Made by a program: the position numbers and the translations under genes. A stretch of DNA of 64,000 bases from an uncultured Alphaproteobacteria bacterium (GTDB lineage Bacteria > Pseudomonadota > Alphaproteobacteria > RF32 > CAG-239), in contig CALXWE010000004.1 of NCBI GenBank assembly GCA_944392295.1, forward strand, positions 45,819 through 109,818. Direction: 5' to 3'. Below are positions 272 through 62,876 of the stretch, one piece after another (within the stretch, counting starts at the first letter, position 1; the number at the start of each line of letters is the position of its first letter). The notes under the pieces were generated by a model. The model saw only the letters and a list, made by a program, of their open reading frames with translations. It had not been told where the DNA came from and searched no databases.

Positions 272-366
272 AAAAGGCGAAGGGACAAAAACCTCGGAGT
301 ATCCGTTACGGCTGCTTCCTTCCGAACCTGACCGGGTTGGCGGACTACCGACCTTTTGCCCTTCAT
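272..366 (-). ncRNA. ffs: Signal recognition particle RNA (small 4.5S type); ends approximate
   Basis: The minus strand of 310-333 reads GGUCAGGUUCGGAAGGAAGCAGCC. This nearly matches the conserved SRP RNA domain IV core as I recall it from E. coli 4.5S (GGUCAGGUCCGGAAGGAAGCAGCC). GAAGGG (364-359) can pair with CCCUUC (284-279) to close a long hairpin. It lies directly upstream of dnaX on the same strand, a common synteny. Confidence 0.75.
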
Positions 367-440
367 AAAAAAATCTACACTCTATATTGAAATAATTGCT
401 CAATTTTTCAAGTAAAAAATTGAACTATCAACATCACTTA

Positions 441-6968: not shown

Positions 6969-7017
6969 TTGTTTAAGCGAACACATTGTTGTTGCATTTT
7001 AATAGTTGGTACTTTTT

Positions 7018-7659
7018 TTATTTTGTATTTTTAAAATAAAATTGGAAATAGACTTGCTTTTTATCAGTTAATTCGAACTGTTGTTCACATATGTTATTTA
7101 TTTCGGAAATACTCATATTGGCAAAATCATATTGAGCGTTTACCAGGTTTATGTTTTTTCCTCCACCGGGTTGATTTCTTAAATATATAAAAGTAAATCC
7201 TTTAGGATTTTCTCTGTAAATGGGTTGTAATGCAAGTAGAATATTACGGCAATAAGAAATACCGATATCAATGCTTGGGAAGGTTATTGGAGTTTCGTAT
7301 TGAGGTTTGCCGTATATGGCTAGTACCGTATCGTGATTTAATGGGTGATTGTAAATATATATTGTACTATAAGTACCAAAGGCATCTTTCAGATACTCGT
7401 TTTGAACAGACATACCGTCGGGAATAGCATTTAACTTTTGATATATCGGAATCAAAGAATCATTTGGTTCGGCTGATATTTGATATTGATAGGTATAAAT
7501 CATATTAATTAATGATGAAATTTGCTCAGCTTGCTTATTTAGTTTATATTTCATCATCGCCTTAGAGTAACCGGCGATGGCACCGACGGATAGCACTCCA
7601 ATTATCGCCAGAACGCCGAGCATTTCGACCATCGAGCGTCCAAGTTCATTAAATTTCAT
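7018..7659 (-). CDS. Type IV pilin-like protein (class III signal peptide), variable family paralog A, short leader
   Basis: MKFNELG|RSMVEMLGVLAIIGVLSVGAIAGYSKAMMKYKLNKQAEQ. Gly at -1, Glu at +5, then a hydrophobic helix. Divergent C-terminal domain. SD GGAGG before the ATG. Confidence 0.75.
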   Translation of the reverse strand: MKFNELGRSMVEMLGVLAIIGVLSVGAIAGYSKAMMKYKLNKQAEQISSLINMIYTYQYQISAEPNDSLIPIYQKLNAIPDGMSVQNEYLKDAFGTYSTIYIYNHPLNHDTVLAIYGKPQYETPITFPSIDIGISYCRNILLALQPIYRENPKGFTFIYLRNQPGGGKNINLVNAQYDFANMSISEINNICEQQFELTDKKQVYFQFYFKNTK

Positions 7660-7740
7660 CTAAAAACCTCCGATTTTGAGTTGTTAAAGGACTTTAAACG
7701 AAATCATAAACCGTTTTTTTTTTTTGCAACTTTAAAAGGA
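7660..7740 (-). promoter_or_regulatory. Conserved upstream cassette of the pilin-like family (copy 1): SD, putative -10 TATGAT, A12 tract, TTGCAA
   Basis: Coding-strand sequence TCCTTTTAAAGTTGCA(12xA)CGGTTTATGATTTCGTTTAAAGTCCTTTAACAACTCAAAATCGGAGGTTTTTAG-ATG. Nearly identical copies precede all six family genes. The homopolymer is at 7714-7725. Promoter hexamer assignment is tentative. Confidence 0.6.
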
Positions 7741-7777
7741 ATAAAGTTGATGTTTTATTTATAATATTGTTGTTAAA

Positions 7778-8407
7778 CTATTTCCAAGTAGCATAAAATA
7801 CGCATCCGCTTGATTCTTTTAAGCAACTATTACAGAGAGTATCAAAGTCTTCTAGAGTTAGACTTCTGATACATCTTTTGTTTTTAGATGTATCACAATA
7901 AGCGTCACCATGAAGAGTGTTTGATGAATATTCCGTATCTCCGTCTTCTGATTGACTTTGGATTTGTGAATAAGCGTTATACAATATTCCTGAATGTTCT
8001 TTGTATACATTAAGTAAGTTGCGGCATATTTCTAAACCGTTATTATCTGAACTAAATCGGTAGGCTAAACCGTAAACTGTTGGGTAGGCAAATACCCAAA
8101 TATCATTTTTAAAAATATCATTTAAATAGGTTGAGTTGCGGCGAGAGATTCCATCTGGGAGCATATTTAATTTATAAAGAGTTTCAGCAAAGTGCATGGC
8201 GGCGCCGTTGGTTGATGTATTAATTAACTTATGGCTTATTTCAAAAGCATTGATAAATAACATATTCATGCTTTCTGCTTGCTTATTTAGTTTATATTTC
8301 ATCATCGCCTTAGAGTAACCGGAGATGGCACCCACCGACAGTACGCCTATAATAGCCAAGACGCCGAGCATTTCGACCATCGAGCGTCCAAGTTCATTAA
8401 ATTTCAT
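7778..8407 (-). CDS. Type IV pilin-like protein, variable family paralog B, short leader
   Basis: Same leader and N-terminal helix as paralog A (MKFNELG|RSMVEMLGVLAIIGVLSVGAISGYSKAMMKYKLNKQAE). C-terminal Cys cluster CDTSKNKRC...CNSCLKESSGCVFY. Confidence 0.75.
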   Translation of the reverse strand: MKFNELGRSMVEMLGVLAIIGVLSVGAISGYSKAMMKYKLNKQAESMNMLFINAFEISHKLINTSTNGAAMHFAETLYKLNMLPDGISRRNSTYLNDIFKNDIWVFAYPTVYGLAYRFSSDNNGLEICRNLLNVYKEHSGILYNAYSQIQSQSEDGDTEYSSNTLHGDAYCDTSKNKRCIRSLTLEDFDTLCNSCLKESSGCVFYATWK

Positions 8408-8484
8408 CTAAAACCTCCGATTTTGAGTTGTTAACGGGCTTTAAACGAAATCATAAACCGTTTTTTTTTTTTGCAACTTTAAAG
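8408..8484 (-). promoter_or_regulatory. Conserved pilin-family upstream cassette (copy 2)
   Basis: Near-identical to 7660-7740. Homopolymer 8461-8472 (12 nt). Confidence 0.6.
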
Positions 8485-8494
8485 ATTCGGGCGA

Positions 8495-9250
8495 CTAATT
8501 TTTGTAGATAACGATTTCTTTATTGGAATTCATTTTGCCTAAAGCTTGGTCTAGCTCTTGGTTTGCCGGAAACATTCCGCTTTGATGAAAAATTTGCAAC
8601 TCGTTGACGTATTGACTGTAACGATTGCGATATTTGGGCAAATCGGGATTTATACCTCCTGTCTGCGGTGCCGTAATATCGGCAGTTTGAACACTATTAT
8701 TTTCCGGATTAATACCGCCCGTATTGTTAATATTGTCGGCAAAAGTCGGTACCGTAACGGGCTGTGGATTATCATCTTCAATAAAATCGGTGGTGATGAC
8801 GGCTTGATTGTTATTGTTTGCGTCTTGGCTCGTTGCCGTTTGTGTAATTTCAGATTTGGCAGGTGGTGTATTTTGAACAACATTGCCGGTTGCTTGATTA
8901 GCGTGGCTGCCGGTGTTAGAATCCGCGCCGGTCGCGGCTGCGGTATTTGTAGTTTCGGCTTTGGCGTATACCGGGATATATCTGCCGTCAACGGCTATGT
9001 AATGAGAAATTTTGGGCTTTTTTACTCTTATCGGGGCTTGTCTGGTATTTTGCCCGTTATTGCCGGTGTTATTGTTTCGGCTCCTTATTGCCGAAGGGAG
9101 CTTGGGCTGGGGAAGGGCTATAGGCGGAAGTTTTTCGTAACGGGGTTGTAGCTCGTTTTTCGGAATAAAAAAGGCTTCTTGCGCCGCAACAAACCTGCCG
9201 GCAGCTATTATACCGGTCGTTAAAAGTAAAAAAAATACCGTCTTTTTCAT
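8495..9250 (-). CDS. Secreted low-complexity (Asn/Thr/Gln/Pro-rich) protein, function unknown
   Basis: Signal peptide MKKTVFFLLLTTGIIAAGRFVAAQ. Internal repeat TGGINP(E/D). The antisense ORFs on the + strand are compositional artefacts. Confidence 0.55.
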   Translation of the reverse strand: MKKTVFFLLLTTGIIAAGRFVAAQEAFFIPKNELQPRYEKLPPIALPQPKLPSAIRSRNNNTGNNGQNTRQAPIRVKKPKISHYIAVDGRYIPVYAKAETTNTAAATGADSNTGSHANQATGNVVQNTPPAKSEITQTATSQDANNNNQAVITTDFIEDDNPQPVTVPTFADNINNTGGINPENNSVQTADITAPQTGGINPDLPKYRNRYSQYVNELQIFHQSGMFPANQELDQALGKMNSNKEIVIYKN

Positions 9251-16691: not shown

Positions 16692-19600
16692 TTATTGGGT
16701 TATAGAATTGTTATTTTCAAGTTTCTTTTGGCGATACATACGTATCAACTTGGTTATGTAATTTTGTATCATTGAAACCATATATTTTTGATTATAGCTG
16801 TTGTGAATTTCATCATAATTATCTGTAGATGAAATGTTTTGCGTTTCTTTACCCTTTACAAAAAGTTTGATAAGAGCTTTTTTAAGTGCGGTCGGATTGG
16901 TGTTTTCTTGGGCTAAAAATACTTCTAAACCTTTTCCGGCAACACTGCGTGTTAGGGAATTGGGGTTACGGGACTTAAAGGTATCCGACATACCGCGAAT
17001 AACTTCCTTATCATTTTTACCGGAAAGCAATATCGCTCTTACAGCATTATATCCGGCTAAATCTTCGTTAGTCTTTGAGTTGTTAATGCTTTGTGCTATC
17101 TTAATAATGGCGGCAATTTTGGCGGCGTATTGCGATTTATAATTACCGCTTTTATATAACATCATATAGGTTGTTATCATATCGGGAGTTTCGCCTTCGC
17201 CCTTTTCGGCTACCGTAAAGTTAAAGGTATCGTATAAAAGACGTCCGAATTCATATCGGTCCTCAGGTGAAAATGGATGATTGTTTTCTTGTCTGTTAAT
17301 GGTATAGATAACCTCTTTCATGATGCCTTTTAAAATGGCCGTATCAACATTTTGACGTTTGATTAATTCTCCGATTGTCGGCATAAATTCCTTTGGTATA
17401 TCCGGACTTAAGGAATTTTTATCAAGTTCCTGAATGCGATCGGCCATTATTTTGAGTAATGGTATTTTAACTTCCGATGCTTGTTGAACTTTAATTATTT
17501 CTTTCTTGATTACGCTGCCTATTTTGGCGGGTAAATACTTAAAGGAATCGGCGTACATATTAAACAACATACTGCCTAAAAATTCTCTGTCCGAATACGA
17601 TAATAAATTTTGTTCTGAATAAAATAAACCGAGTTGTTTTATTCCTTCATCAACAAAACCGGTTATGATGCTTTCATCAATTGAGGTATTGCCGTCAGCT
17701 AAGGCGTTGTTTATACAATCTACCAAATCAATGATTTGAAAATCTTTATAAAAATCAATAACAGAGAGCAGTGTCTTTAGGCAATCTGATAAGTAGGATG
17801 AAGTCGTTTGTTTTAGCCGATAAGCATCTTCAATTTTGTTTCCGAGAGTAACGCTGAACTGACGGAATAAATTTCCTTCAAAATTACTGCTTACCATTTT
17901 CTCAAAAGTTTGGTATAAAAATTTTCCAAGCAATTTTTTATCTTGTGCCGAGGCATATACGGTGGCTCGTGCTCCACTATCAAAAATACAAATGGTATTA
18001 GTTTCCGGATTGAGGCGTATCTGTCGGCCAAATTCAGTATTGCTGACATTTCCCCCGCTTATTAATTTGCTTAATTTAAGACTGTTATAAATTTTATTTA
18101 CTACCTGTCTGTAACGTAAATTTTTAATTGTATCTAATGTGTTGCCGTAACTTCTTTCCATTTCTGCCCAAGTTTTACCGTAAGCTGTCCAATTGGCTAC
18201 TCTTAGCTTAATCTTATAACCATCAATTTCAAATTCACGGTGATTGTAGGTCTTTTGGGCCGCTTTTAGCTGCTCGTAGCCTACACTTAAATCGGTCTCA
18301 ATTATAACATCATGTCGGGTTTGAGTAATTATTTGTAGAAGACTATTGATGTTTTCGGATAACAGATTGTCGTGGAATAAGTCGTACAAAGTGTCTTCAA
18401 ATGCCTTAAATTCTTTTTCGGCAGAAGTTTTTGTAGCAGCATAAACGATTTTTACAACTTTGTCGCTTTCAAATGGTGATTTGTTTTTTTCAAGTGCACC
18501 TTTTTCTAAAGTTATAAAATACGGATTGGAGCTTAGGCTGCGTCCGAGCCAGATGTTTGAACTGTAATCAAGTTTGTTATCGTCATCTTGTGTATTATAA
18601 AAGTCAAGCCATTCAAACAATTCCCAACGAGCTGGGTGCTGCTCCTTAAACTTTATTTTTTGTAACTCTTTACGTATATATTTAGGCAGAGCTAAACAAA
18701 CTGTTGCCGATTGTGCTATACGTGTAGCAACCGGACCGGCATTTTCTAAAAAGATGCGGGTGCACTCTGCTAAATTTTTATTAGCATCGATGGTTGCCGG
18801 TGTCTCAAGGGCAGCGCTCATGGCTGCAGCCAGATATAATGTGCGCTCTGAATTTTTATGAGCTTTGATGTAGCTGTGTAAAATCTTACATACAATTTGT
18901 TTCTTAACATCATCAACAGCGGGTAACAAATGTTTACATATGCAGTTGAAAATGTGCTCCCAATCATTGGCCGAAATCCCTAAATTAGAAGCTTGGATAA
19001 CTTCACCTAAAATGACGGCACGGGCCTCTATTGGATATCCCCAAAATTCATGGTAAAGCATATCAAGAGTTTGCGGAGATATTCTTTCTTTACGAGAGCG
19101 TTGACTTTCTTGCAGTGCAGAATTTAAATGCTGGCTGTAGGCTTCACAATCCTTGTTACTACCGAATGTTAAAAGAAAGTCTATCAGATTATCGGCTTCC
19201 GTGCGGGATAAGGATATTAATGATTTAATTGTAGCAAATCCGGCAATTTGCAGCCTACATCCGTCATCTTCTTCGCTTATTTCCATAAAACTTGCAGGGT
19301 AGGGTTTTAACAGAAAAGCAAGTTTTTTTTGTGCTACAAATCTTTCTGCCAACAAGTGTGATAATTCAAGTCGGTCAGCCTGATTAACATTTTCATCAAT
19401 GTCTATGCCGAACATATTTTGTTCATAACTGTAGCCGTGCAGTTTTTGAGCATATACTTTTACTTTGTTGTAAAGGGATTCTGATTTGTCATCAATTTGT
19501 GAACCGCAGGAGCTAAATACCGATTGTACCCATAGCTGTTGATAACGCCTTCTTAAATCGGGGTCTAAAATACGGTGCTGCTTATTGATGAAAATATCGT

Positions 19601-22600
19601 AATAACTGTTTTTTAATTCAGGCTCGCGAATACTTTCTATCTCGGGAATAAAGTTTTCCAAAAATTGATGTTGTAAAACATAATCGTCGGCAAATCCGTT
19701 GACTTCAACCAATTTTTGATAGGCCTTAATTTTACCTATTAAATCGACATTGAATGCCGGGTTGTCTTGGATTAGCATATTTTTGAGTTGGTTGTCGCCA
19801 ATGTAGTCTAGTGTTTTGGCTATCTCAACCGAGGCAGCAAGAGCTTTTTGCGGGTTGTTTTCTTTTTTAATTTGTTTGATTATGTAGCTCAAACTTTCCG
19901 TATCATCAATAAGACCTTGCTCGCGAAGGCTGCGGTAGACCTTAACCATGCCCAAAATGTCGGCAGGATAATTTTCTCTTTTGATTAAAAACGGTTTGAG
20001 CTTGGCTCTTTGCAAATCCAGCAATTCATAAAGCGGATACTTTGATAATATCTCAAGCGGAAACAGATGCTTGTCATCGGTGATGATGTATAGCAGCATA
20101 CCGGTTCGGATATTGGCTGCCAAATCATCGGAAGATTGTAAAAGTTTTTCATCTTTAAAGTCGGCAAAATCAACCGGAAAATCTAGAGCCTTTCGAATGT
20201 GTTCGTAAAAGACCGGTTGATATTTTTGGAAATTAATATTCTCTAATGTTAAGTGTTTGTCTGCAGCCATTTCGTTAAGAGCAAAAACGGCAAGACGTTT
20301 TAATTCGGGAATGACAATGTTGTTTTTGCTTAACAGACCTAAATCGAGAAGTTTCTTAACGCCTACTTTTTCAAACAAGGTGTTGTAATATTTAATAAAT
20401 TGGGCTTCGCTGAAAAATTGTACGCTGCGTGGGGATTTAAGCGCATCTTTACAAAATTGCATAAATTCATATTCGATAGGTTGCAATGTGTTAAGCGACC
20501 AACCGTATTCTGCATGTTCAACGTCGTTGCAAACGTGGCTTAAGTAAGCTTCAAAAATTATGTTGTCGTTTTCAAGACTATACTTCGAATTAACAAATGC
20601 TAAAATCTCGGGACCGAGCAGTTTGTTAAATCGCAGCTCGTTAAATTTGCTGTAACCTTCGTAAATTTCCGAGGAAGTTTTGAGCATGTAAAAACTATCT
20701 TCTATAAAATTTTCAACAGGCTGTTTTTGCGGATAGGCAACGCTGGTATTATCTTTGAGTAAGGCATTGGCATAATCAAGGGATGATACTGCTTCTGACT
20801 TTGCTACATATTTGTATGGACCGGTGAGACCTTTAAGATGTAAGAGGTCTTTACTGCTTAAGTTTTTAATTTTTTGCGGATTTTGCGAAGCCGTACGAAT
20901 TATATCGTAGTACTGCTTAATCTCCTTGGCAAGCTGCCGATAAATGGTATCTTCCCTGGTTTGCAGTAAATCTTCAAGTTTGGCTTTATATTCTTTTGGT
21001 GAAAACGAATCGAGGATTTTGCCTTGATTGTCGCAAATATAAAACCAGCTCTTATCGGTAACATCAGCTGAAAATGGGGCTTCGCGGTAATTGCCGCGAT
21101 AGTGTATTATATAGCACCCTTTATATATTTCTTTGGCGGTTAATCCTAGGATTTTTTCATATACGGAAGATCGCAAAGCAATTAAGGGTATGGTCTTACC
21201 TTTATCAGAACCGTTTTGTTCCAGAGGTAATTTAGGAAATCTGTCCAGCTTAAATTTTTTAAACAGATAGCTATCGCTTTTAGGGTAAAATTTTAAATCT
21301 TGCGGTAAAAATGTAGTCGGGTTGTCGGAGCTGAAACAATCTCGGATATTGGAAAATTTTGACCATACACGACGCTGATATGCAGGGTCTTCTTGGTTGT
21401 GAAATACTTTTTCAAATTCTTCCAAAATGTTTCTTCCGGTAGGAAGTTTGCTGATATCAATATCTTCTATGCCGCTTAAAATACATCCGTTATAAATGCT
21501 TAAATAATCGCCGTCGGGAAGCTGGGTTTCTAAATCAAGCAATTTATCCCAGAACAAAACGTTGGGAAAAGTTCCCTCAGCAATGGCCCGCTTTTGATAC
21601 TCTTCAAGCAGATTGTTAAATCGGGAAACAGTTTCAAATGCATCATCAGGTACAATTTTTTGCGGAAAACTTTCTAAAATTGAAATACGATGCTCAAGAG
21701 ATTCCGGCAAAGGCGTATGAAAAATTTCTTGCCAACGTTTTTGACGCAACTCTTCGTGAGCCGGATTATAACTTTTAAATAATTCATAGTCGCTTTGAGA
21801 GACAATTTTACGTGCCATATTGCGTCTTAAGTCGGCGACATAACTTAAAATAACATCTTCAATTTGTACGGCTTGATTATGAGTTAATTCCTTTGAAGGC
21901 GGAATAAATTCTTTTAGAGCAGAAATTAATATATCTTGCTTTTCGATTAAACTAAAGGAATCGTACTTTTTACTTTCTAAAAGTTTACGCAGGCTTGATT
22001 TATAGTAACTTTTGTTTACCGAAGTTTTAAATTTAACCGGAATTTCGGTCGGCTCAAAAGCCGTAATGTCAATATCTTGTTTGTAATAGAAACTTTGTAA
22101 AGATTGAATCTTTAACTGTAAAGCATTAAGCATACTTTCATTATTAGGGTATTGTTTGAAAGCTTTTAAGATTTTTGCAGATAAAGAGTGATATTTTTGT
22201 GAGTTAAGAAAAATATGGGTTATTAAACTTTCGGCCTGGGCAATGTTATATTTGGCCTGAGCTAACATTTTAAGGGCGTTAAAGTCAGAAGAATCTCCTG
22301 CGCTGTAATCGGTGTTTTTGAAATAAGCAGGAATAAGTTTTAGCTCATAACTCATAATGAAGGCTAATTGGTCTTCATTTTGTACAATATTGATTAGACC
22401 TTTGGTTACGGTTAGGACAGGAATAAGGTTTTGCTTGCCGGCTTGATTTTTAATTTGCGGAACAACAAAGGAAATATTAGGTTCACTATCGTCGGTGATG
22501 CAGAAAAATACGGGATTTTGATCAAGATCAAATGAGGTGCCGAAAAGTCGGCGGGCTATACCCTCAAGATAAGAGCATCTTTCTTGTTCTTCTTGCAAAG

Positions 22601-22670
22601 TACCATCAATGATTTTAATCTGGTCATACAAATCAGAAGGTAAATTTCTTTTAATCTGTAAAACATCCAT
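16692..22670 (-). CDS. Giant orphan protein (1992 aa), mostly helical, with a degenerate ABC1/UbiB-like kinase-like module
   Basis: Uninterrupted 5.98-kb ORF with no signal peptide or TM segment evident. Residues ~1305-1600 (nt 17871-18758) loosely follow the ABC1 pattern (details in findings). Confidence 0.8.
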   Translation of the reverse strand: MDVLQIKRNLPSDLYDQIKIIDGTLQEEQERCSYLEGIARRLFGTSFDLDQNPVFFCITDDSEPNISFVVPQIKNQAGKQNLIPVLTVTKGLINIVQNEDQLAFIMSYELKLIPAYFKNTDYSAGDSSDFNALKMLAQAKYNIAQAESLITHIFLNSQKYHSLSAKILKAFKQYPNNESMLNALQLKIQSLQSFYYKQDIDITAFEPTEIPVKFKTSVNKSYYKSSLRKLLESKKYDSFSLIEKQDILISALKEFIPPSKELTHNQAVQIEDVILSYVADLRRNMARKIVSQSDYELFKSYNPAHEELRQKRWQEIFHTPLPESLEHRISILESFPQKIVPDDAFETVSRFNNLLEEYQKRAIAEGTFPNVLFWDKLLDLETQLPDGDYLSIYNGCILSGIEDIDISKLPTGRNILEEFEKVFHNQEDPAYQRRVWSKFSNIRDCFSSDNPTTFLPQDLKFYPKSDSYLFKKFKLDRFPKLPLEQNGSDKGKTIPLIALRSSVYEKILGLTAKEIYKGCYIIHYRGNYREAPFSADVTDKSWFYICDNQGKILDSFSPKEYKAKLEDLLQTREDTIYRQLAKEIKQYYDIIRTASQNPQKIKNLSSKDLLHLKGLTGPYKYVAKSEAVSSLDYANALLKDNTSVAYPQKQPVENFIEDSFYMLKTSSEIYEGYSKFNELRFNKLLGPEILAFVNSKYSLENDNIIFEAYLSHVCNDVEHAEYGWSLNTLQPIEYEFMQFCKDALKSPRSVQFFSEAQFIKYYNTLFEKVGVKKLLDLGLLSKNNIVIPELKRLAVFALNEMAADKHLTLENINFQKYQPVFYEHIRKALDFPVDFADFKDEKLLQSSDDLAANIRTGMLLYIITDDKHLFPLEILSKYPLYELLDLQRAKLKPFLIKRENYPADILGMVKVYRSLREQGLIDDTESLSYIIKQIKKENNPQKALAASVEIAKTLDYIGDNQLKNMLIQDNPAFNVDLIGKIKAYQKLVEVNGFADDYVLQHQFLENFIPEIESIREPELKNSYYDIFINKQHRILDPDLRRRYQQLWVQSVFSSCGSQIDDKSESLYNKVKVYAQKLHGYSYEQNMFGIDIDENVNQADRLELSHLLAERFVAQKKLAFLLKPYPASFMEISEEDDGCRLQIAGFATIKSLISLSRTEADNLIDFLLTFGSNKDCEAYSQHLNSALQESQRSRKERISPQTLDMLYHEFWGYPIEARAVILGEVIQASNLGISANDWEHIFNCICKHLLPAVDDVKKQIVCKILHSYIKAHKNSERTLYLAAAMSAALETPATIDANKNLAECTRIFLENAGPVATRIAQSATVCLALPKYIRKELQKIKFKEQHPARWELFEWLDFYNTQDDDNKLDYSSNIWLGRSLSSNPYFITLEKGALEKNKSPFESDKVVKIVYAATKTSAEKEFKAFEDTLYDLFHDNLLSENINSLLQIITQTRHDVIIETDLSVGYEQLKAAQKTYNHREFEIDGYKIKLRVANWTAYGKTWAEMERSYGNTLDTIKNLRYRQVVNKIYNSLKLSKLISGGNVSNTEFGRQIRLNPETNTICIFDSGARATVYASAQDKKLLGKFLYQTFEKMVSSNFEGNLFRQFSVTLGNKIEDAYRLKQTTSSYLSDCLKTLLSVIDFYKDFQIIDLVDCINNALADGNTSIDESIITGFVDEGIKQLGLFYSEQNLLSYSDREFLGSMLFNMYADSFKYLPAKIGSVIKKEIIKVQQASEVKIPLLKIMADRIQELDKNSLSPDIPKEFMPTIGELIKRQNVDTAILKGIMKEVIYTINRQENNHPFSPEDRYEFGRLLYDTFNFTVAEKGEGETPDMITTYMMLYKSGNYKSQYAAKIAAIIKIAQSINNSKTNEDLAGYNAVRAILLSGKNDKEVIRGMSDTFKSRNPNSLTRSVAGKGLEVFLAQENTNPTALKKALIKLFVKGKETQNISSTDNYDEIHNSYNQKYMVSMIQNYITKLIRMYRQKKLENNNSITQ

Positions 22671-25774: not shown

Positions 25775-26443
25775 TTACTTAAATACATAATATACAACAC
25801 ATATGTTACCCTTTAAGCATTGATTACATAAATTCCAGATAGTGCTAATATCTGCTGAATAAATACAATAGTCCTGGTTACTACACGTTTTACCATAGAG
25901 CCACTGCTGTTGATTTTCGTCGTTACTATCGGTACCGTTAAATCCGATTGCTTGTAATTCATAGGCAAAGCCTTTTGCTAAGTTAAAGCGATTAATACAA
26001 GAATCTATATCGCTGTTATAAAAACGGATGAATGTTTGCTTACTTGTATTGTCTCTGTATATAAGTATTTGATTATTGAAACTATCATAAATATAATCAG
26101 TATTATCTTTAATCATTTCTTGGGGGATTATGTTAAGCTTTTTATAATATGGAAGCATATATGTTACTTGTTCAGATGAATTTGTTTCGTATAATATGTT
26201 TTTGTATTCAATCATTCCGCTTAAAAGCTGGCTAAGTTGTTCGGTCTGTTTGTTAAGTTTATATTTCATCATTGCTTTAGAGTAACCGGCGATGGCGCCG
26301 ACGGACAAAACTCCGATAATTGCCAGCACGCCCAGCATTTCGACCATACTTCTTCCGGCGGAAAGTTTGTATAAGGGCTCATCTAAAGCCGTTTTATGGG
26401 AGCTTATTTTTACGAATTGGCATAAAAATTTATAAAATTTCAT
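25775..26443 (-). CDS. Type IV pilin-like protein, variable family paralog C, 30-aa leader
   Basis: MKFYKFLCQFVKISSHKTALDEPLYKLSAG|RSMVEMLGVLAIIGVLSVGAIAGYSKAMMKYKLNKQTEQ. C-terminal CSNQDYC...CNQCLKGNICVVYY. Confidence 0.75.
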   Translation of the reverse strand: MKFYKFLCQFVKISSHKTALDEPLYKLSAGRSMVEMLGVLAIIGVLSVGAIAGYSKAMMKYKLNKQTEQLSQLLSGMIEYKNILYETNSSEQVTYMLPYYKKLNIIPQEMIKDNTDYIYDSFNNQILIYRDNTSKQTFIRFYNSDIDSCINRFNLAKGFAYELQAIGFNGTDSNDENQQQWLYGKTCSNQDYCIYSADISTIWNLCNQCLKGNICVVYYVFK

Positions 26444-26520
26444 CTAAAACCTCCGAGTTTTGTTCAATAAAGGACTTTAAACGAAATCATAAACCGTTTT
26501 TTTTTTTTGCAATTTTAAAG
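26444..26520 (-). promoter_or_regulatory. Conserved pilin-family upstream cassette (copy 3)
   Basis: Same cassette. Homopolymer 26497-26508 (12 nt). Confidence 0.6.
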
Positions 26521-36277: not shown

Positions 36278-37069
36278 TTATTTTGTAAAATCAAACTGTA
36301 TCCACTGGTAAAAGTAAAGACTACCGTTATTTACAAACTCATTGTAACTTTTTTGGCAGGCTTCATAAAAATCGTGGGTTGTCATATTAGGTAGGCAAGG
36401 GGATGTAGATTTACAATTTTGCCGATAATAGTAATAATATGGTCGCTCAATCCAAACGGTTGTCAAAGATGAAGTTTCTGGTTGTATGGATTTTAACATC
36501 TGAAACGTATTAACACAAGCATCTACGGAGCTTTGTGCTTTGTTATAATGAATAATAAATGCAAGATTATTTCCATTTTTTCCTACATATAATTCTATGC
36601 TTATACCAAGAGAGGTTTTGACAACGTTTTTGCTTATATAAGATACACCATCAGGTAATGATTTTAATGTATTCAGTAACCCGGCGACATCTGTTCCCGA
36701 AGATGTTTTTTCGTAATATTTTTGTGAAATAGTCGATGTAACAGCGGTCAGCAGTTCCGAAATTTGTTGGGTGTGTTTATTTAATTTATATTTTGTCATC
36801 GCCTTAGAGTAGCCGGATATAGCGCCAACCGATAGAATGCCAATGATAGCAAGAACACCAAGCATTTCGACCATACTTCTTCCGGCGGAAAGTTTGTATA
36901 AGTGCTCATCTAAAGCCGTTTTACGGTACTGAAAAAAATTCATGTACTTTTTGTGTACACTAAAATTTTTTTCGCCCCTAGAAACGACTTTATCTAAACT
37001 CTTCTCCAAACTTTCGGGAAAAAAGGGGCTGATTTTTACGAATTGGCATAAAAATTGATAAAATTTCAT
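36278..37069 (-). CDS. Type IV pilin-like protein, variable family paralog D, 63-aa leader
   Basis: MKFYQFLCQFVKIS[33-aa insert]RKTALDEHLYKLSAG|RSMVEMLGVLAIIGILSVGAISGYSKAMTKYKLNKHTQQ. The same cassette precedes the MKF start. Confidence 0.7.
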   Translation of the reverse strand: MKFYQFLCQFVKISPFFPESLEKSLDKVVSRGEKNFSVHKKYMNFFQYRKTALDEHLYKLSAGRSMVEMLGVLAIIGILSVGAISGYSKAMTKYKLNKHTQQISELLTAVTSTISQKYYEKTSSGTDVAGLLNTLKSLPDGVSYISKNVVKTSLGISIELYVGKNGNNLAFIIHYNKAQSSVDACVNTFQMLKSIQPETSSLTTVWIERPYYYYYRQNCKSTSPCLPNMTTHDFYEACQKSYNEFVNNGSLYFYQWIQFDFTK

Positions 37070-37150
37070 CTAAAATCTCCGAGTTTTATTCACTAAAGGA
37101 CTTTAAACGAAATCATAAACCGTTTTTTTTTTTTGCAACTTTAAAAGGAA
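37070..37150 (-). promoter_or_regulatory. Conserved pilin-family upstream cassette (copy 4)
   Basis: Same cassette. Homopolymer 37123-37134 (12 nt). Confidence 0.6.
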
Positions 37151-37191: not shown

Positions 37192-37227
37192 AAAAAAAAA
37201 CACTCTCATTACTGAGAGTGTTTTTTT
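37192..37227 (-). terminator. Rho-independent terminator after tuf (bidirectional form)
   Basis: A-run, CACTCTCA (37201-37208) / TGAGAGTG (37213-37220), loop TTAC, T-run. Confidence 0.85.
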
Positions 37228-38501: not shown

Positions 38502-38575
38502 TGGAGCGGGTGAGGGGAATCGAACCCCCGTAATAAGCTTGGAAGGCTTCTGCTCTACCATTGAGCTACACCCGC
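38502..38575 (-). tRNA. tRNA-Gly (anticodon TCC)
   Basis: The minus strand reads GCGGGTGTAGCTCAATGGTAGAGCAGAAGCCTTCCAAGCTTATTACGGGGGTTCGATTCCCCTCACCCGCTCCA. Cloverleaf with anticodon loop CT-TCC-AA and encoded CCA. Confidence 0.9.
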
Positions 38576-38605
38576 AAACTCTTAATATATCAGAAGCGAT
38601 TAAAC

Positions 38606-38691
38606 TGGTGGAGGGGGATGGATTCGAACCATCGTAGACGAAAGTCGACGGATTTACAGTCCGTTGCATTTGACCGCTCTGCCACCCCTCC
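38606..38691 (-). tRNA. tRNA-Tyr (anticodon GTA), long variable arm
   Basis: The minus strand reads GGAGGGGTGGCAGAGCGGTCAAATGCAACGGACTGTAAATCCGTCGACTTTCGTCTACGATGGTTCGAATCCATCCCCCTCCACCA. The tRNA-Tyr/Gly-tuf order is a common synteny. Confidence 0.9.
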
Positions 38692-41183: not shown

Positions 41184-41260
41184 CGGGACGTAGTTCAGCC
41201 TGGTAGAGCGCTTGCATGGGGTGCAAGAAGTCGGAGGTTCAAATCCTCTCGTCCCGACCA
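41184..41260 (+). tRNA. tRNA-Pro (anticodon GGG)
   Basis: CGGGACGTAGTTCAGCCTGGTAGAGCGCTTGCATGGGGTGCAAGAAGTCGGAGGTTCAAATCCTCTCGTCCCGACCA. Full cloverleaf with anticodon loop AT-GGG-GT and encoded CCA. Confidence 0.9.
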
Positions 41261-54600: not shown

Positions 54601-54677
<77 letters not shown>

Positions 54678-61272: not shown

Positions 61273-61983
61273 TTACTTTATAGGTAAAAAGATGTAAAAA
61301 TCACAACTGACTTCCGCTTCACAGCTATTACATAAAGTATCGATATCGGTTAAAGAAGCATTACGAAGACAGTTATTGGGATTAGTACATATAGAGTCTC
61401 CGTATAAAGCCGTGGTACCGTAACCATCTTCGTTTTTTTGCCGCATTTGAATAGAGTTTATGTTAGCGGCATTTTCTTTGGCGGCGGTAACTATATTGCG
61501 GCAGATTTGTGCCGAATAGGGGCTTATTTTGTTATTTACCCTATTCATGTTTATATAAATATTATATTCAACATGTTTGAATACAGCTTCAAAGTAATAT
61601 GAGGTGGAAATACGGTTATTAAATATATCGTAGATACGGTTGGTAGCTTCATCGTAATGCATACCCTCAGGTATCAGATTAAGTTGTTTGAAAATGATTG
61701 TGCCTATGGCCTGTTGTTGGAAGGAGCGATTTAATTGCGGACCCAATTGAATAGCATTATTAATCAGCGTGTTCATTGATTCTGCGTGTTTATTAAGTTT
61801 ATATTTGAACATGGCTTTGGAGTAGCCGGCAATAGCACCGACAGAAAGTACACCAATAATGGCTAAAACTCCCAACATTTCAACCATACTTCTTCCGGCG
61901 GAAAGTTTGTATAAGGGCTCATCTAAAGCCGTTTTACGGGAATTAAGTTTTACAAAATGGCATAAAAATTGATAAAATTTCAT
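61273..61983 (-). CDS. Type IV pilin-like protein, variable family paralog E, 30-aa leader
   Basis: MKFYQFLCHFVKLNSRKTALDEPLYKLSAG|RSMVEMLGVLAIIGVLSVGAIAGYSKAMFKYKLNKHAE. C-terminal CTNPNNC...CNSCEAEVSCDFY. Confidence 0.75.
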   Translation of the reverse strand: MKFYQFLCHFVKLNSRKTALDEPLYKLSAGRSMVEMLGVLAIIGVLSVGAIAGYSKAMFKYKLNKHAESMNTLINNAIQLGPQLNRSFQQQAIGTIIFKQLNLIPEGMHYDEATNRIYDIFNNRISTSYYFEAVFKHVEYNIYINMNRVNNKISPYSAQICRNIVTAAKENAANINSIQMRQKNEDGYGTTALYGDSICTNPNNCLRNASLTDIDTLCNSCEAEVSCDFYIFLPIK

Positions 61984-62072
61984 CTAAAATCTCCGAGTTT
62001 TATTCACTAAAGGACTTTAAACGAAATCATAAACCGTTTTTTTTTTTTGCAACTTTAAAAGGAGCTGTGCCC
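61984..62072 (-). promoter_or_regulatory. Conserved pilin-family upstream cassette (copy 5)
   Basis: Same cassette. Homopolymer 62037-62048 (12 nt). The extra shared tail AAAAGGAGCTGTGCCC is seen only in copies 5 and 6. Confidence 0.6.
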
Positions 62073-62109: not shown

Positions 62110-62787
62110 CTATAAACGCCAGTTGATGTCAATGTTACAGGTTACTTTATCCATGCAGCTTTTGCACATACTGTATATTTCATCAAGAGTAATATCCGTA
62201 ATGCATTTTTGCGATGAATTGCAAGTCTTGCCGTAAAAATAAAACTCATATTGATGATCGTTGTTTCCGGATGAAGAACCGATGAATAAGTGTGAAAAAT
62301 CTTGTGAATGAGCCTTAGCAACATTTAACAGATTTTGGCAGGTTGTGAAGTTATCGGAAGTAGGTTCAAGATAATATACAATATGAGTGAGTAAAAAAGT
62401 CGGACCGCCGTTGTTACTGATTAATACTTTATTTCCCATAGCGTCATATAAAAACCCGTTTTCGACTTTCATACCATCTGGAATTAGGTTCATTTTTTGA
62501 AACAATGTTATCAAATTAGTCCACTGGTTATATTTTAATTGCGGAGTGTAGGTGGTCATAACATTAAATAGCCAGGAGATTTGCTCGGCTTGTTTGTTAA
62601 GCTTATATTTAGTCATCGCCTTAGAGTAGCCGGAAATGGCACCGACAGATAATACGCCTATGATTGCAAGAACGCCGAGCATTTCGACCATACTTCTTCC
62701 GGCGGAAAGTTTGTATAAGGGCTTATCTAAAGCTGTTTTACGGGGTCTTATTTTTACGAATTGGCATAAAAATTGGTAAAATTTCAT
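62110..62787 (-). CDS. Type IV pilin-like protein, variable family paralog F, 30-aa leader
   Basis: MKFYQFLCQFVKIRPRKTALDKPLYKLSAG|RSMVEMLGVLAIIGVLSVGAISGYSKAMTKYKLNKQAEQ. C-terminal CNSSQKC...CKSCMDKVTC. Confidence 0.75.
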   Translation of the reverse strand: MKFYQFLCQFVKIRPRKTALDKPLYKLSAGRSMVEMLGVLAIIGVLSVGAISGYSKAMTKYKLNKQAEQISWLFNVMTTYTPQLKYNQWTNLITLFQKMNLIPDGMKVENGFLYDAMGNKVLISNNGGPTFLLTHIVYYLEPTSDNFTTCQNLLNVAKAHSQDFSHLFIGSSSGNNDHQYEFYFYGKTCNSSQKCITDITLDEIYSMCKSCMDKVTCNIDINWRL

Positions 62788-62876
62788 CTAAAATCTCCAA
62801 AGTTTGATTCACTAAAGGACTTTAAACGAAATCATAAACCGTTTTTTTTTTTGCAACTTTAAAAGGAGCTGTGCCC
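62788..62876 (-). promoter_or_regulatory. Conserved pilin-family upstream cassette (copy 6), shorter homopolymer
   Basis: Same cassette. Homopolymer 62842-62852 is 11 nt, against 12 in the other five copies. Confidence 0.6.

Follow-up and report, generated by a model that had tools for sequence, protein, structure and literature searches.

Transcription of the fimbrial subunit genes fim2, fim3, fimX and fimN of Bordetella is directed by a common promoter in which the length of a C-stretch sets the level of expression (PMC1891110). In Mycoplasma hyorhinis, all vlp genes have a poly-A tract in the promoter that switches them on and off (PMC10502178), each gene independently of the others through indels in its own tract (Citti and Wise 1995, as summarized there). 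The Bordetella fim promoter family is the closest relative in kind of the promoters analyzed here, and the vlp family the next closest. In Neisseria meningitidis, a homopolymer forms the spacer between the -35 and -10 elements of porA and opc, and single-base changes give a graded 'volume control'; these tracts are poly-G or poly-C, the genes are single-copy outer-membrane protein genes and the spacers are approximately canonical (16-17 bp). A promoter switch based on a homopolymer is not known to us from Alphaproteobacteria, nor one that acts on type IVb pili.

The locus described here belongs to an uncultured gut alphaproteobacterium and resembles the fim genes of Bordetella pertussis and B. 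bronchiseptica in that paralogous major subunit genes each carry a conserved promoter cassette (the 'fim box' and C-stretch in Bordetella), with a long homopolymer between an upstream recognition element and the -10. In Bordetella, tract length differs among genes and strains and sets the transcript level (PMC1891110); here, too, length differs among genes and strains, and its effect on transcript level is putative. The tract is poly-C of 7-19 nt in Bordetella and poly-A of 10-12 nt here; chaperone-usher fimbriae are replaced by type IVb-like pilins (with DUF4402 and VirB2 proteins in relatives); the activator site has only a putative activator as counterpart; and the lengths are far more uniform, 78% being at the mode. 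The likeness to vlp lies in a poly-A promoter tract before every member of a surface-protein family. The vlp tracts are, however, longer (~17-20 A), and the vlp genes encode lipoproteins from one clustered locus of a wall-less Mollicute, whereas the genes described here are dispersed over the chromosome and their module is kept across many species. With porA and opc the cassette shares a homopolymer as -35/-10 spacer, which here is 15 bp and poly-A. In the features that can be checked, the A-tract promoters thus appear to work like those of fim and vlp, length-dependent transcription and reversible high-frequency switching being putative. They would then represent a known kind, the promoter-spacer homopolymer switch, in a further host clade and further gene families; what differs from that kind is the tract base, the gene families, the host clade, the 15-bp geometry and the length uniformity.

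Six cassettes are present in the window, by which we mean the whole 64-kb stretch of DNA analyzed, and all lie on the minus strand (Table 1). Each is composed of (G/A)TTGC, a run of 12 (five copies) or 11 (one copy) A's, CGGTT and TATGAT; the sequence 3′ of the A run is CGGTTTATGATTTCG in every copy, and the tracts appear as T runs on the plus strand. A window-wide pattern search recovered the cassettes at the positions, on the strand and with the tract lengths given by the first-pass annotation. Its description of the coding strand as GTTGCA followed by the A run counts one A twice, the strand reading GTTGC and then A12; nor is GTTGC common to all six, the copy at 26497 having ATTGC. The 32-nt cassette pattern gave five matches against 0.00 expected from 100 dinucleotide-preserving shuffles of the window, the A11 copy falling outside the matches because the pattern has a fixed length. 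Apart from these six tracts, the window has no A/T run of at least 10 nt, and a single other run reaches 9. The ATG of a pilin-like open reading frame of 209-263 amino acids was found 42-43 nt downstream of every cassette (6/6). An Rfam search revealed no family within or near the cassettes.

Table 1. Features of the window (a slash marks the end of the prepilin leader)
Feature	Position	Strand	Description
RNA gene	273-367	-	
Pilin-like gene	7018-7659	-	type IVb-pilin-like, 213 aa, short leader MKFNELG/RSMVEML
Leader with pairing	7657-7702	-	
Cassette 1	7703-7729	-	5′ of gene 7018-7659; TATGAT (-10-like) 7703-7708, CGGTT 7709-7713, A12 7714-7725, TTGC (start of -35-like TTGCAA) 7726-7729
Pilin-like paralogue	7778-8407	-	209 aa, short leader
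Leader with pairing	8405-8449	-	
Cassette 2	8450-8476	-	5′ of gene 7778-8407; A12 8461-8472
GAATC	8484-8488	-	7 nt upstream of TTGC of cassette 2
Open reading frame	16692-22670	-	1,992 aa, no Pfam match at E < 0.01
Pilin-like paralogue	25775-26443	-	222 aa, leader ~30 aa
Leader with pairing	26441-26485	-	
Cassette 3	26486-26512	-	5′ of gene 25775-26443; A12 26497-26508, begins ATTGC
Pilin-like paralogue	36278-37069	-	263 aa, leader ~62 aa
Leader with pairing	37067-37111	-	
Cassette 4	37112-37138	-	5′ of gene 36278-37069; A12 37123-37134
A9 run	37192-37200		adjoins hairpin
Hairpin	~37192-37227		just upstream of cassette 4
RNA gene	38502-38691	-	
RNA gene	41184-41260	+	
RNA gene	54601-54677	-	
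Pilin-like paralogue	61273-61983	-	236 aa, leader ~30 aa
Cassette 5	62026-62052	-	5′ of gene 61273-61983; A12 62037-62048
Pilin-like paralogue	62110-62787	-	225 aa, leader ~30 aa, intact behind the A11 promoter
Cassette 6	62831-62856	-	5′ of gene 62110-62787; A11 62842-62852

The six proteins have in common an invariant N-terminus, G/RSMVEMLGVLAIIGVLSVG...YSKAM.KYKLNK, beyond which their identity is only 31-42%. A homologue search gave at least 7,500 relatives, and G/RSMVEMLGVLAIIGVLSVG is invariant in the six proteins and in 62 aligned homologues. They display the hallmarks of type IV pilins, namely a prepilin leader ending in G, E at +5 and a hydrophobic N-terminal helix, and those of the pilin fold, an N-terminal helix of ~50 residues packed on an antiparallel sheet; the R at +1 is unusual. 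Pfam gave no match for the six proteins, and NCBIfam returned only GspG, GspH, PilA and TIGR02532 at 10-17 bits, all below threshold. A literature search found nothing relevant on pilins of this clade or on DUF4402. As at contingency loci, the genes form a multigene family of the surface-exposed, host-interaction type. In four of the six proteins (25775-26443, 36278-37069, 61273-61983 and 62110-62787, minus strand), 30-62 inserted amino acids separate the common start MKFYQ from the cleavage motif GRSMVEML, so that their prepilin leaders are unusually long and basic; relatives carry different long inserts at the corresponding position. The minus strand carries all six pilin genes, and the cumulative GC skew rises monotonically across the window. 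Within the RNA gene intervals of Table 1 lie the genes of a small SRP RNA and of four tRNAs (Gly, Tyr, Pro, Val). A hairpin, CACTCTCATTACTGAGAGTG, with an A9 run and a T7 run at its two sides, precedes cassette 4 and looks like a bidirectional intrinsic terminator that would insulate this cassette from the tRNA-side gene.

Searched exactly, the window's own cassette CGGTTTATGATTTCGTTTAAAG had no match in genome contigs or metagenome contigs, and relatives were obtained instead by a looser DNA pattern and by retrieval on protein identity, which is blind to the DNA motif. The degenerate pattern TTGCAAAAA-N0-15-AAACGGTTTA, in which the tract must reach 8 but may be interrupted, gave at least 117 loci with one genome per species. 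Among the matches listed, true cassettes were restricted to uncultured Alphaproteobacteria MAGs (roe-deer colon RGIG4267, SIG55, SIG51 and the BRZ_* bins), while the 55 interrupted-run matches are unrelated chance matches in other phyla. No true cassette was found in the viral contigs searched, and nothing therefore points to a phage origin. Protein-based retrieval recovered TTGC-A12, a 5-nt linker and TAnnnT in front of each of the clade-1 pilins examined. Orthologues 60-70% identical (L004, L005, L008, L238, L239 and L241/242) all have A12, and their leaders 3′ of the module have diverged; L241 and L242 have the linker TGATT in place of CGGTT and keep A12 plus 5 nt. Between these last two strains, which are 99.3% identical, the -35-like element of the same pilin promoter changes from TTGC to TAGC (L241:~1365 versus L242:~2410), which could be a point-mutation knock-down.

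A second clade was revealed by a protein-based scan of metagenome contigs, and its cassette reads ACAACTTATGCACAGC..GGACTCGTAAATATTGC-A10-CGCGAGC-TAAAAT. Clade 1 thus combines A12 with 5 nt and clade 2 A10 with 7 nt; because tract and linker lengths compensate, the distance from TTGC to the -10 stays at 17 nt in both. No other observation speaks as strongly as this compensation for a tract that acts as a spacer with selection on its overall length, and it supports the earlier proposal that the tract makes up most of a spacer whose length matters. The -10-like hexamer varies in clade 1 (TATGAT, TAGAAT, TAAGAT, TATAAT, TAAAGT, TATTAT) and in clade 2 (TAAAAT, TAATAT), TAnnnT always being kept. 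Although the search pattern permitted interruptions, none was seen in the tracts of ~80 clade-1 and 25 clade-2 cassettes. Taken together, anatomy, conservation, compensation and purity make us confident that the tract serves as a promoter spacer.

In relatives, the A12 module also precedes secreted DUF4402 proteins (28.2 bits versus a cutoff of 25.2), one TrbC/VirB2 pilin (here with A13; 31.1 bits versus 27.9) and a fourth secreted family, where it is followed by a conserved leader of ~230 nt; these loci are L039:765 (+), L090, L053, L110, L032, L107 and L113. The module resembles a promoter shared by a regulon and serving surface-filament subunits of several kinds. In more distant pilin homologues, the region upstream is quite different and contains no A tract. 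Among them, L161, L164, L165, L181, L183, L191, L195, L198-L201 and L204 share a TATGCTACACT box, then a hairpin with a T run and the ribosome-binding region AAAGGAAGTT, which looks like a different, possibly attenuator-type, control region. Metagenome contigs very often start or end at or within a cassette (L003, which ends inside the tract, L011, L013, L035, L068, L070, L116, L121 and many of L127-L206). Assemblies break at the repeated block of promoter and N-terminal coding sequence, and the copy number of these pilins per genome is thus probably under-counted in MAGs.

The geometry of the cassette was then compared with that of sigma-70 promoters. The -10 is close to TATAAT and has the A at position 2 and the T at position 6, with TATGAT in the window and TAGAAT, TAAGAT, TATAAT and TAAAAT in relatives, while TTGCAA agrees with the -35 consensus TTGACA at four of six positions. 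Between TTGCAA and TATGAT, A10 and CGGTT form a spacer of 15 bp, or 14 bp in the A11 copy, as had been proposed (14-15 nt), outside the 16-18 bp expected of a sigma-70 -35; a consensus promoter scan with 16-18 bp spacers did not call the cassettes. In 216 ordinary upstream regions of the same clade, TTG[AC][ACT]N-Nx-TAnnnT was observed 24 times at x = 16 and 29 times at x = 17 (shuffled expectation ~6 for each), and only 4 times at x = 15 (expectation 6.8). Ordinary promoters therefore peak at 16-17 bp, and the 15-bp A-tract geometry is non-canonical for these organisms. The tentative assignment of TTGCAA and TATGAT as -35 and -10 made in the first-pass annotation is supported as to the position of the tract between them and as to the -10, which is backed by TAnnnT; with a spacer 1-2 bp below the peak, TTGCAA may not be a canonical -35. 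At the level of sequence, the order TTGC(AA), A tract, 5-nt linker and TAnnnT is that of a contingency locus.

Sequences upstream of TTGC are conserved as well. A 7-nt AT-rich block, TTTAAAG, separate from the tract, precedes TTGC, and GANTC (GACTC or GAATC) lies exactly 7 nt 5′ of TTGC in 52 of 75 clade-1 and in 16 of 16 clade-2 cassettes; in the window it accompanies cassette 2 only (1/6). Further upstream, TTATCCMCA/ACAACTTATGCACAGC is conserved. GANTC is the CcrM methylation site of Alphaproteobacteria, and an epigenetic or GcrA-type input is possible. The 15-bp geometry and this conserved upstream sequence together suggest a promoter that is probably specialized and perhaps activator-dependent, in which the tract would set the distance between the upstream recognition module and the -10. 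Several known arrangements did not match the cassettes. A sigma-54 promoter (TGGCAC-N5-TTGCA), the type that serves pilin genes in many Proteobacteria, was rejected because TTGCA is present without a GG 10 nt upstream, the upstream consensus being GACTC-N7-TTGC; GGGCAC is found 19 nt away in window copies 5 and 6. On consensus inspection, neither CtrA (TTAA-N7-TTAA) nor sigma-28 (TAAA-N15-GCCGATAA) fits. An invertible promoter was also discarded, the two TTTAAAG copies being direct repeats that flank only ~35 bp, and the second copy not being conserved outside this sub-clade.

Tract lengths were compared among 79 flank-distinct clade-1 cassettes from 14 genomes or bins, among the matches listed. 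A12 was found in 62 (~78%), the remainder being A11 (8), A13 (4), A10 (1), A9 (1), A8 (1) and a TTGA + A12 variant with a C to A change (2); a second A9 was left out because its flanks duplicate those of another copy. A12 was likewise found in 13 of the 14 clade-1 cassettes ascertained by protein, and the 25 clade-2 tracts ascertained in this way are A10 (19), A9 (5) and A11 (1). Not one of more than 100 cassettes has A14, and few have A13. Wherever the downstream reading frame could be read, it is intact behind off-mode tracts (A8-A13). In 559 kb of clade-1 DNA, ~90 A/T runs of at least 10 nt lie in cassettes and 2 elsewhere; non-cassette runs number 510 at length 7, 131 at length 8, 14 at length 9 and 1 at length 10. 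The tract is thus polymorphic in length between strains and paralogues while its flanks are constant, as at contingency loci. Many of the ±1 variants come from low-coverage sources (SIG55, ~2.8x; ERZ1034928 contigs, 2.6-6x), and some could be homopolymer sequencing stutter in low-coverage MAGs; that -1 outnumbers +1 is explained by stutter as readily as by biology.

All six window cassettes are also present in independent same-strain assemblies made from other samples, and 30.4 kb of the window was compared in this way. The overlaps with L001 and L002 (ONAT22 samples; 6,642 and 4,398 nt) and with L209 (BRZ_IN, 14.9x; 10,992 nt) are 100% identical including the tracts, so that cassette 1 is the same in L001 and L002, cassette 2 in L001, and cassettes 3 and 4 in L209. 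The overlap with L208 (BRZ_IK, 7.9x; 12,729 nt) shows no mismatch and one gap, located in the tract 62037-62048, which is A12 in the window and A13 in BRZ_IK, a difference that rests on one contig at 7.9x. Over the 30.4 kb there is thus no mismatch and a single gap, and a single random difference would hit one of the 71 tract bases with a probability of ~0.002. This marks the tracts as either the most changeable or the most error-prone positions, both being compatible with the consensus assemblies. Concomitantly, the A11 tract at 62842-62852 was reproduced in the independent assembly L207/L208, which indicates a genuine allele and not an assembly error. Invariance across strains, which would count against the switch proposed in the first-pass annotation, was not observed: lengths range from A8 to A13, and one locus is seen as both A12 and A13.

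The tract is conserved and yet its length differs among copies, and also among strains that are otherwise identical; its role is therefore probably that of a switch of expression prone to slippage. The same anatomy would also be expected of a fixed structural spacer, a pure A tract being needed as such and its length held at an optimum without use as a switch; the sole difference is whether variation has consequences that selection uses. Such a spacer could consist, for example, of rigid over-twisted A-tract DNA that permits a short spacing, or offer a binding surface to a regulator, and off-mode lengths would be rare deleterious or neutral slips plus sequencing stutter. We regard this as a possibility to be taken seriously, if not the one we favor. 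It is consistent with the very sharp mode across species and three or four gene families, with a purity and A-strand orientation that are kept where the linker changes, as expected if the A tract matters, and with a 15-bp spacing that is non-canonical for the clade and suggests special structural needs; most variants are, moreover, ±1 and from low-coverage assemblies. The fixed A-tract element offered as an alternative in the first-pass annotation fits the A12 mode in the same way, although the tract is not UP-like: an UP element is AT-rich DNA 5′ of the -35, at about -40 to -60, and the tract is located 3′ of the -35-like TTGCAA. Tracts that are 2 to 4 nt short (A8, A9, A10) before intact genes are, however, difficult to call stutter, the A11 allele recurs in two assemblies, and the only same-strain difference in 30.4 kb sits in a tract. 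Furthermore, if only length and AT-richness mattered, substitutions would be expected, and none was found.

The spacer might also not be of the sigma-70 type at all. TTGC with the GANTC/AT block would then be an activator site or an alternative-sigma element, the tract setting its distance to the -10, or A12 (15 bp) would be a low state and A13-A14 (16-17 bp) a high one. The lack of enrichment of 15-bp spacings, the conserved upstream GANTC block and TTATCCMCA/ACAACTTATGCACAGC, and the build of the Bordetella fim promoters (activator site, C-stretch, -10) speak for it. We nevertheless consider it improbable: TTG is kept even in the TTGAAA variant, as for a -35; the sigma-54 (GG-N10-GC), CtrA and sigma-28 consensus sequences do not fit; the window cassettes mostly have no GANTC block; and the absence of A14 and rarity of A13 are at odds with an 'on' state of these lengths. 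Still less probable, in our judgment, is an action after transcription, through reiterative transcription or a structured leader in the 5′ UTR, or termination of the opposite strand by T12. Homopolymers can cause RNA polymerase slippage, which would suit such an action, and the UUUAAAG at the 5′ end of the leader can pair with the Shine-Dalgarno/AUG region. The tract lies, however, upstream of a well-conserved TAnnnT at a fixed distance, an RNA with the tract folds no better than shuffled sequence (z +0.99) and has no Rfam match, and no G+C-rich hairpin adjoins T12 on either strand, a terminator scan of 7000-9000 having given nothing at 7699-7730 or 8446-8477. Taken by themselves, the putative leaders have weak folds (z -1 to -2.2); in four of them (Table 1) the conserved 5′ end CGUUUAAAGYCC can pair with the Shine-Dalgarno/AUG region GGAGGUUUUAGAUG, which would give a weak hairpin occluding translation initiation.

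On balance we incline, with some reserve, towards a promoter-spacer homopolymer that slips and thereby changes the expression of individual pilus-subunit paralogues. The cassette would be a dedicated pilus-subunit promoter, conserved across a clade of uncultured gut Alphaproteobacteria, with the A tract as its spacer. Its upstream module, often a GANTC, then the 7-nt AT-rich block and TTGC/TTGCAA, would be held exactly 17 nt from TAnnnT (from the C of TTGC to the T of the -10), most of this distance being a pure run of 10-12 A's. Such a run would slip at replication, so that single paralogues would occasionally gain or lose an A and the module and the -10 would be mis-spaced. Most likely, the gene affected would thereby be turned down or off in a heritable and reversible way (phase or 'volume' variation). 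In the window, A12 (15-bp hexamer spacer) would then represent the working state, and the A11 copy at 62842-62852 a down-shifted allele. In this scheme, the sequences show the anatomy, its conservation across the clade, the compensation of lengths, the purity of the tract and its natural length polymorphism, while the transcription start, the effect of length on transcription, and the mechanism of slippage with its reversibility and rate are what we infer. A switch is suggested by the multigene surface-filament families, by tracts long enough to slip and kept pure, by intact genes behind off-mode tracts, and by deviations of up to -4 nt, the reproduced A11 allele and the same-strain A12/A13 difference. 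The sharp A12 mode (78%) argues against it, because most paralogues would be 'on' together, unlike classical contingency families in which most copies are off. A further-reaching form of the switch seems to us less likely than not: in commensal gut Alphaproteobacteria, a specialized factor would read a clade-wide class of dedicated 15-bp promoters, the spacer would be kept pure by selection for mutability, and each of the many type IVb-pilin, DUF4402 and VirB2 paralogues of a genome would have its own stochastic switch, giving a combinatorial repertoire of surface filaments.

The 12+5 versus 10+7 arrangement constitutes a clean natural experiment in which spacer length, and not sequence, is conserved. 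Since assemblies break or mis-call length at these promoters, MAG annotations of the clade call for care. If the tracts do switch, these uncultured gut Alphaproteobacteria would vary their surface filaments by means of dozens of one-base switches, each independent of the others, with effects in the gut on adhesion, phage susceptibility and recognition by the immune system, and tract lengths in metagenomic reads would provide a cheap read-out of which pilins are 'on' in each host.
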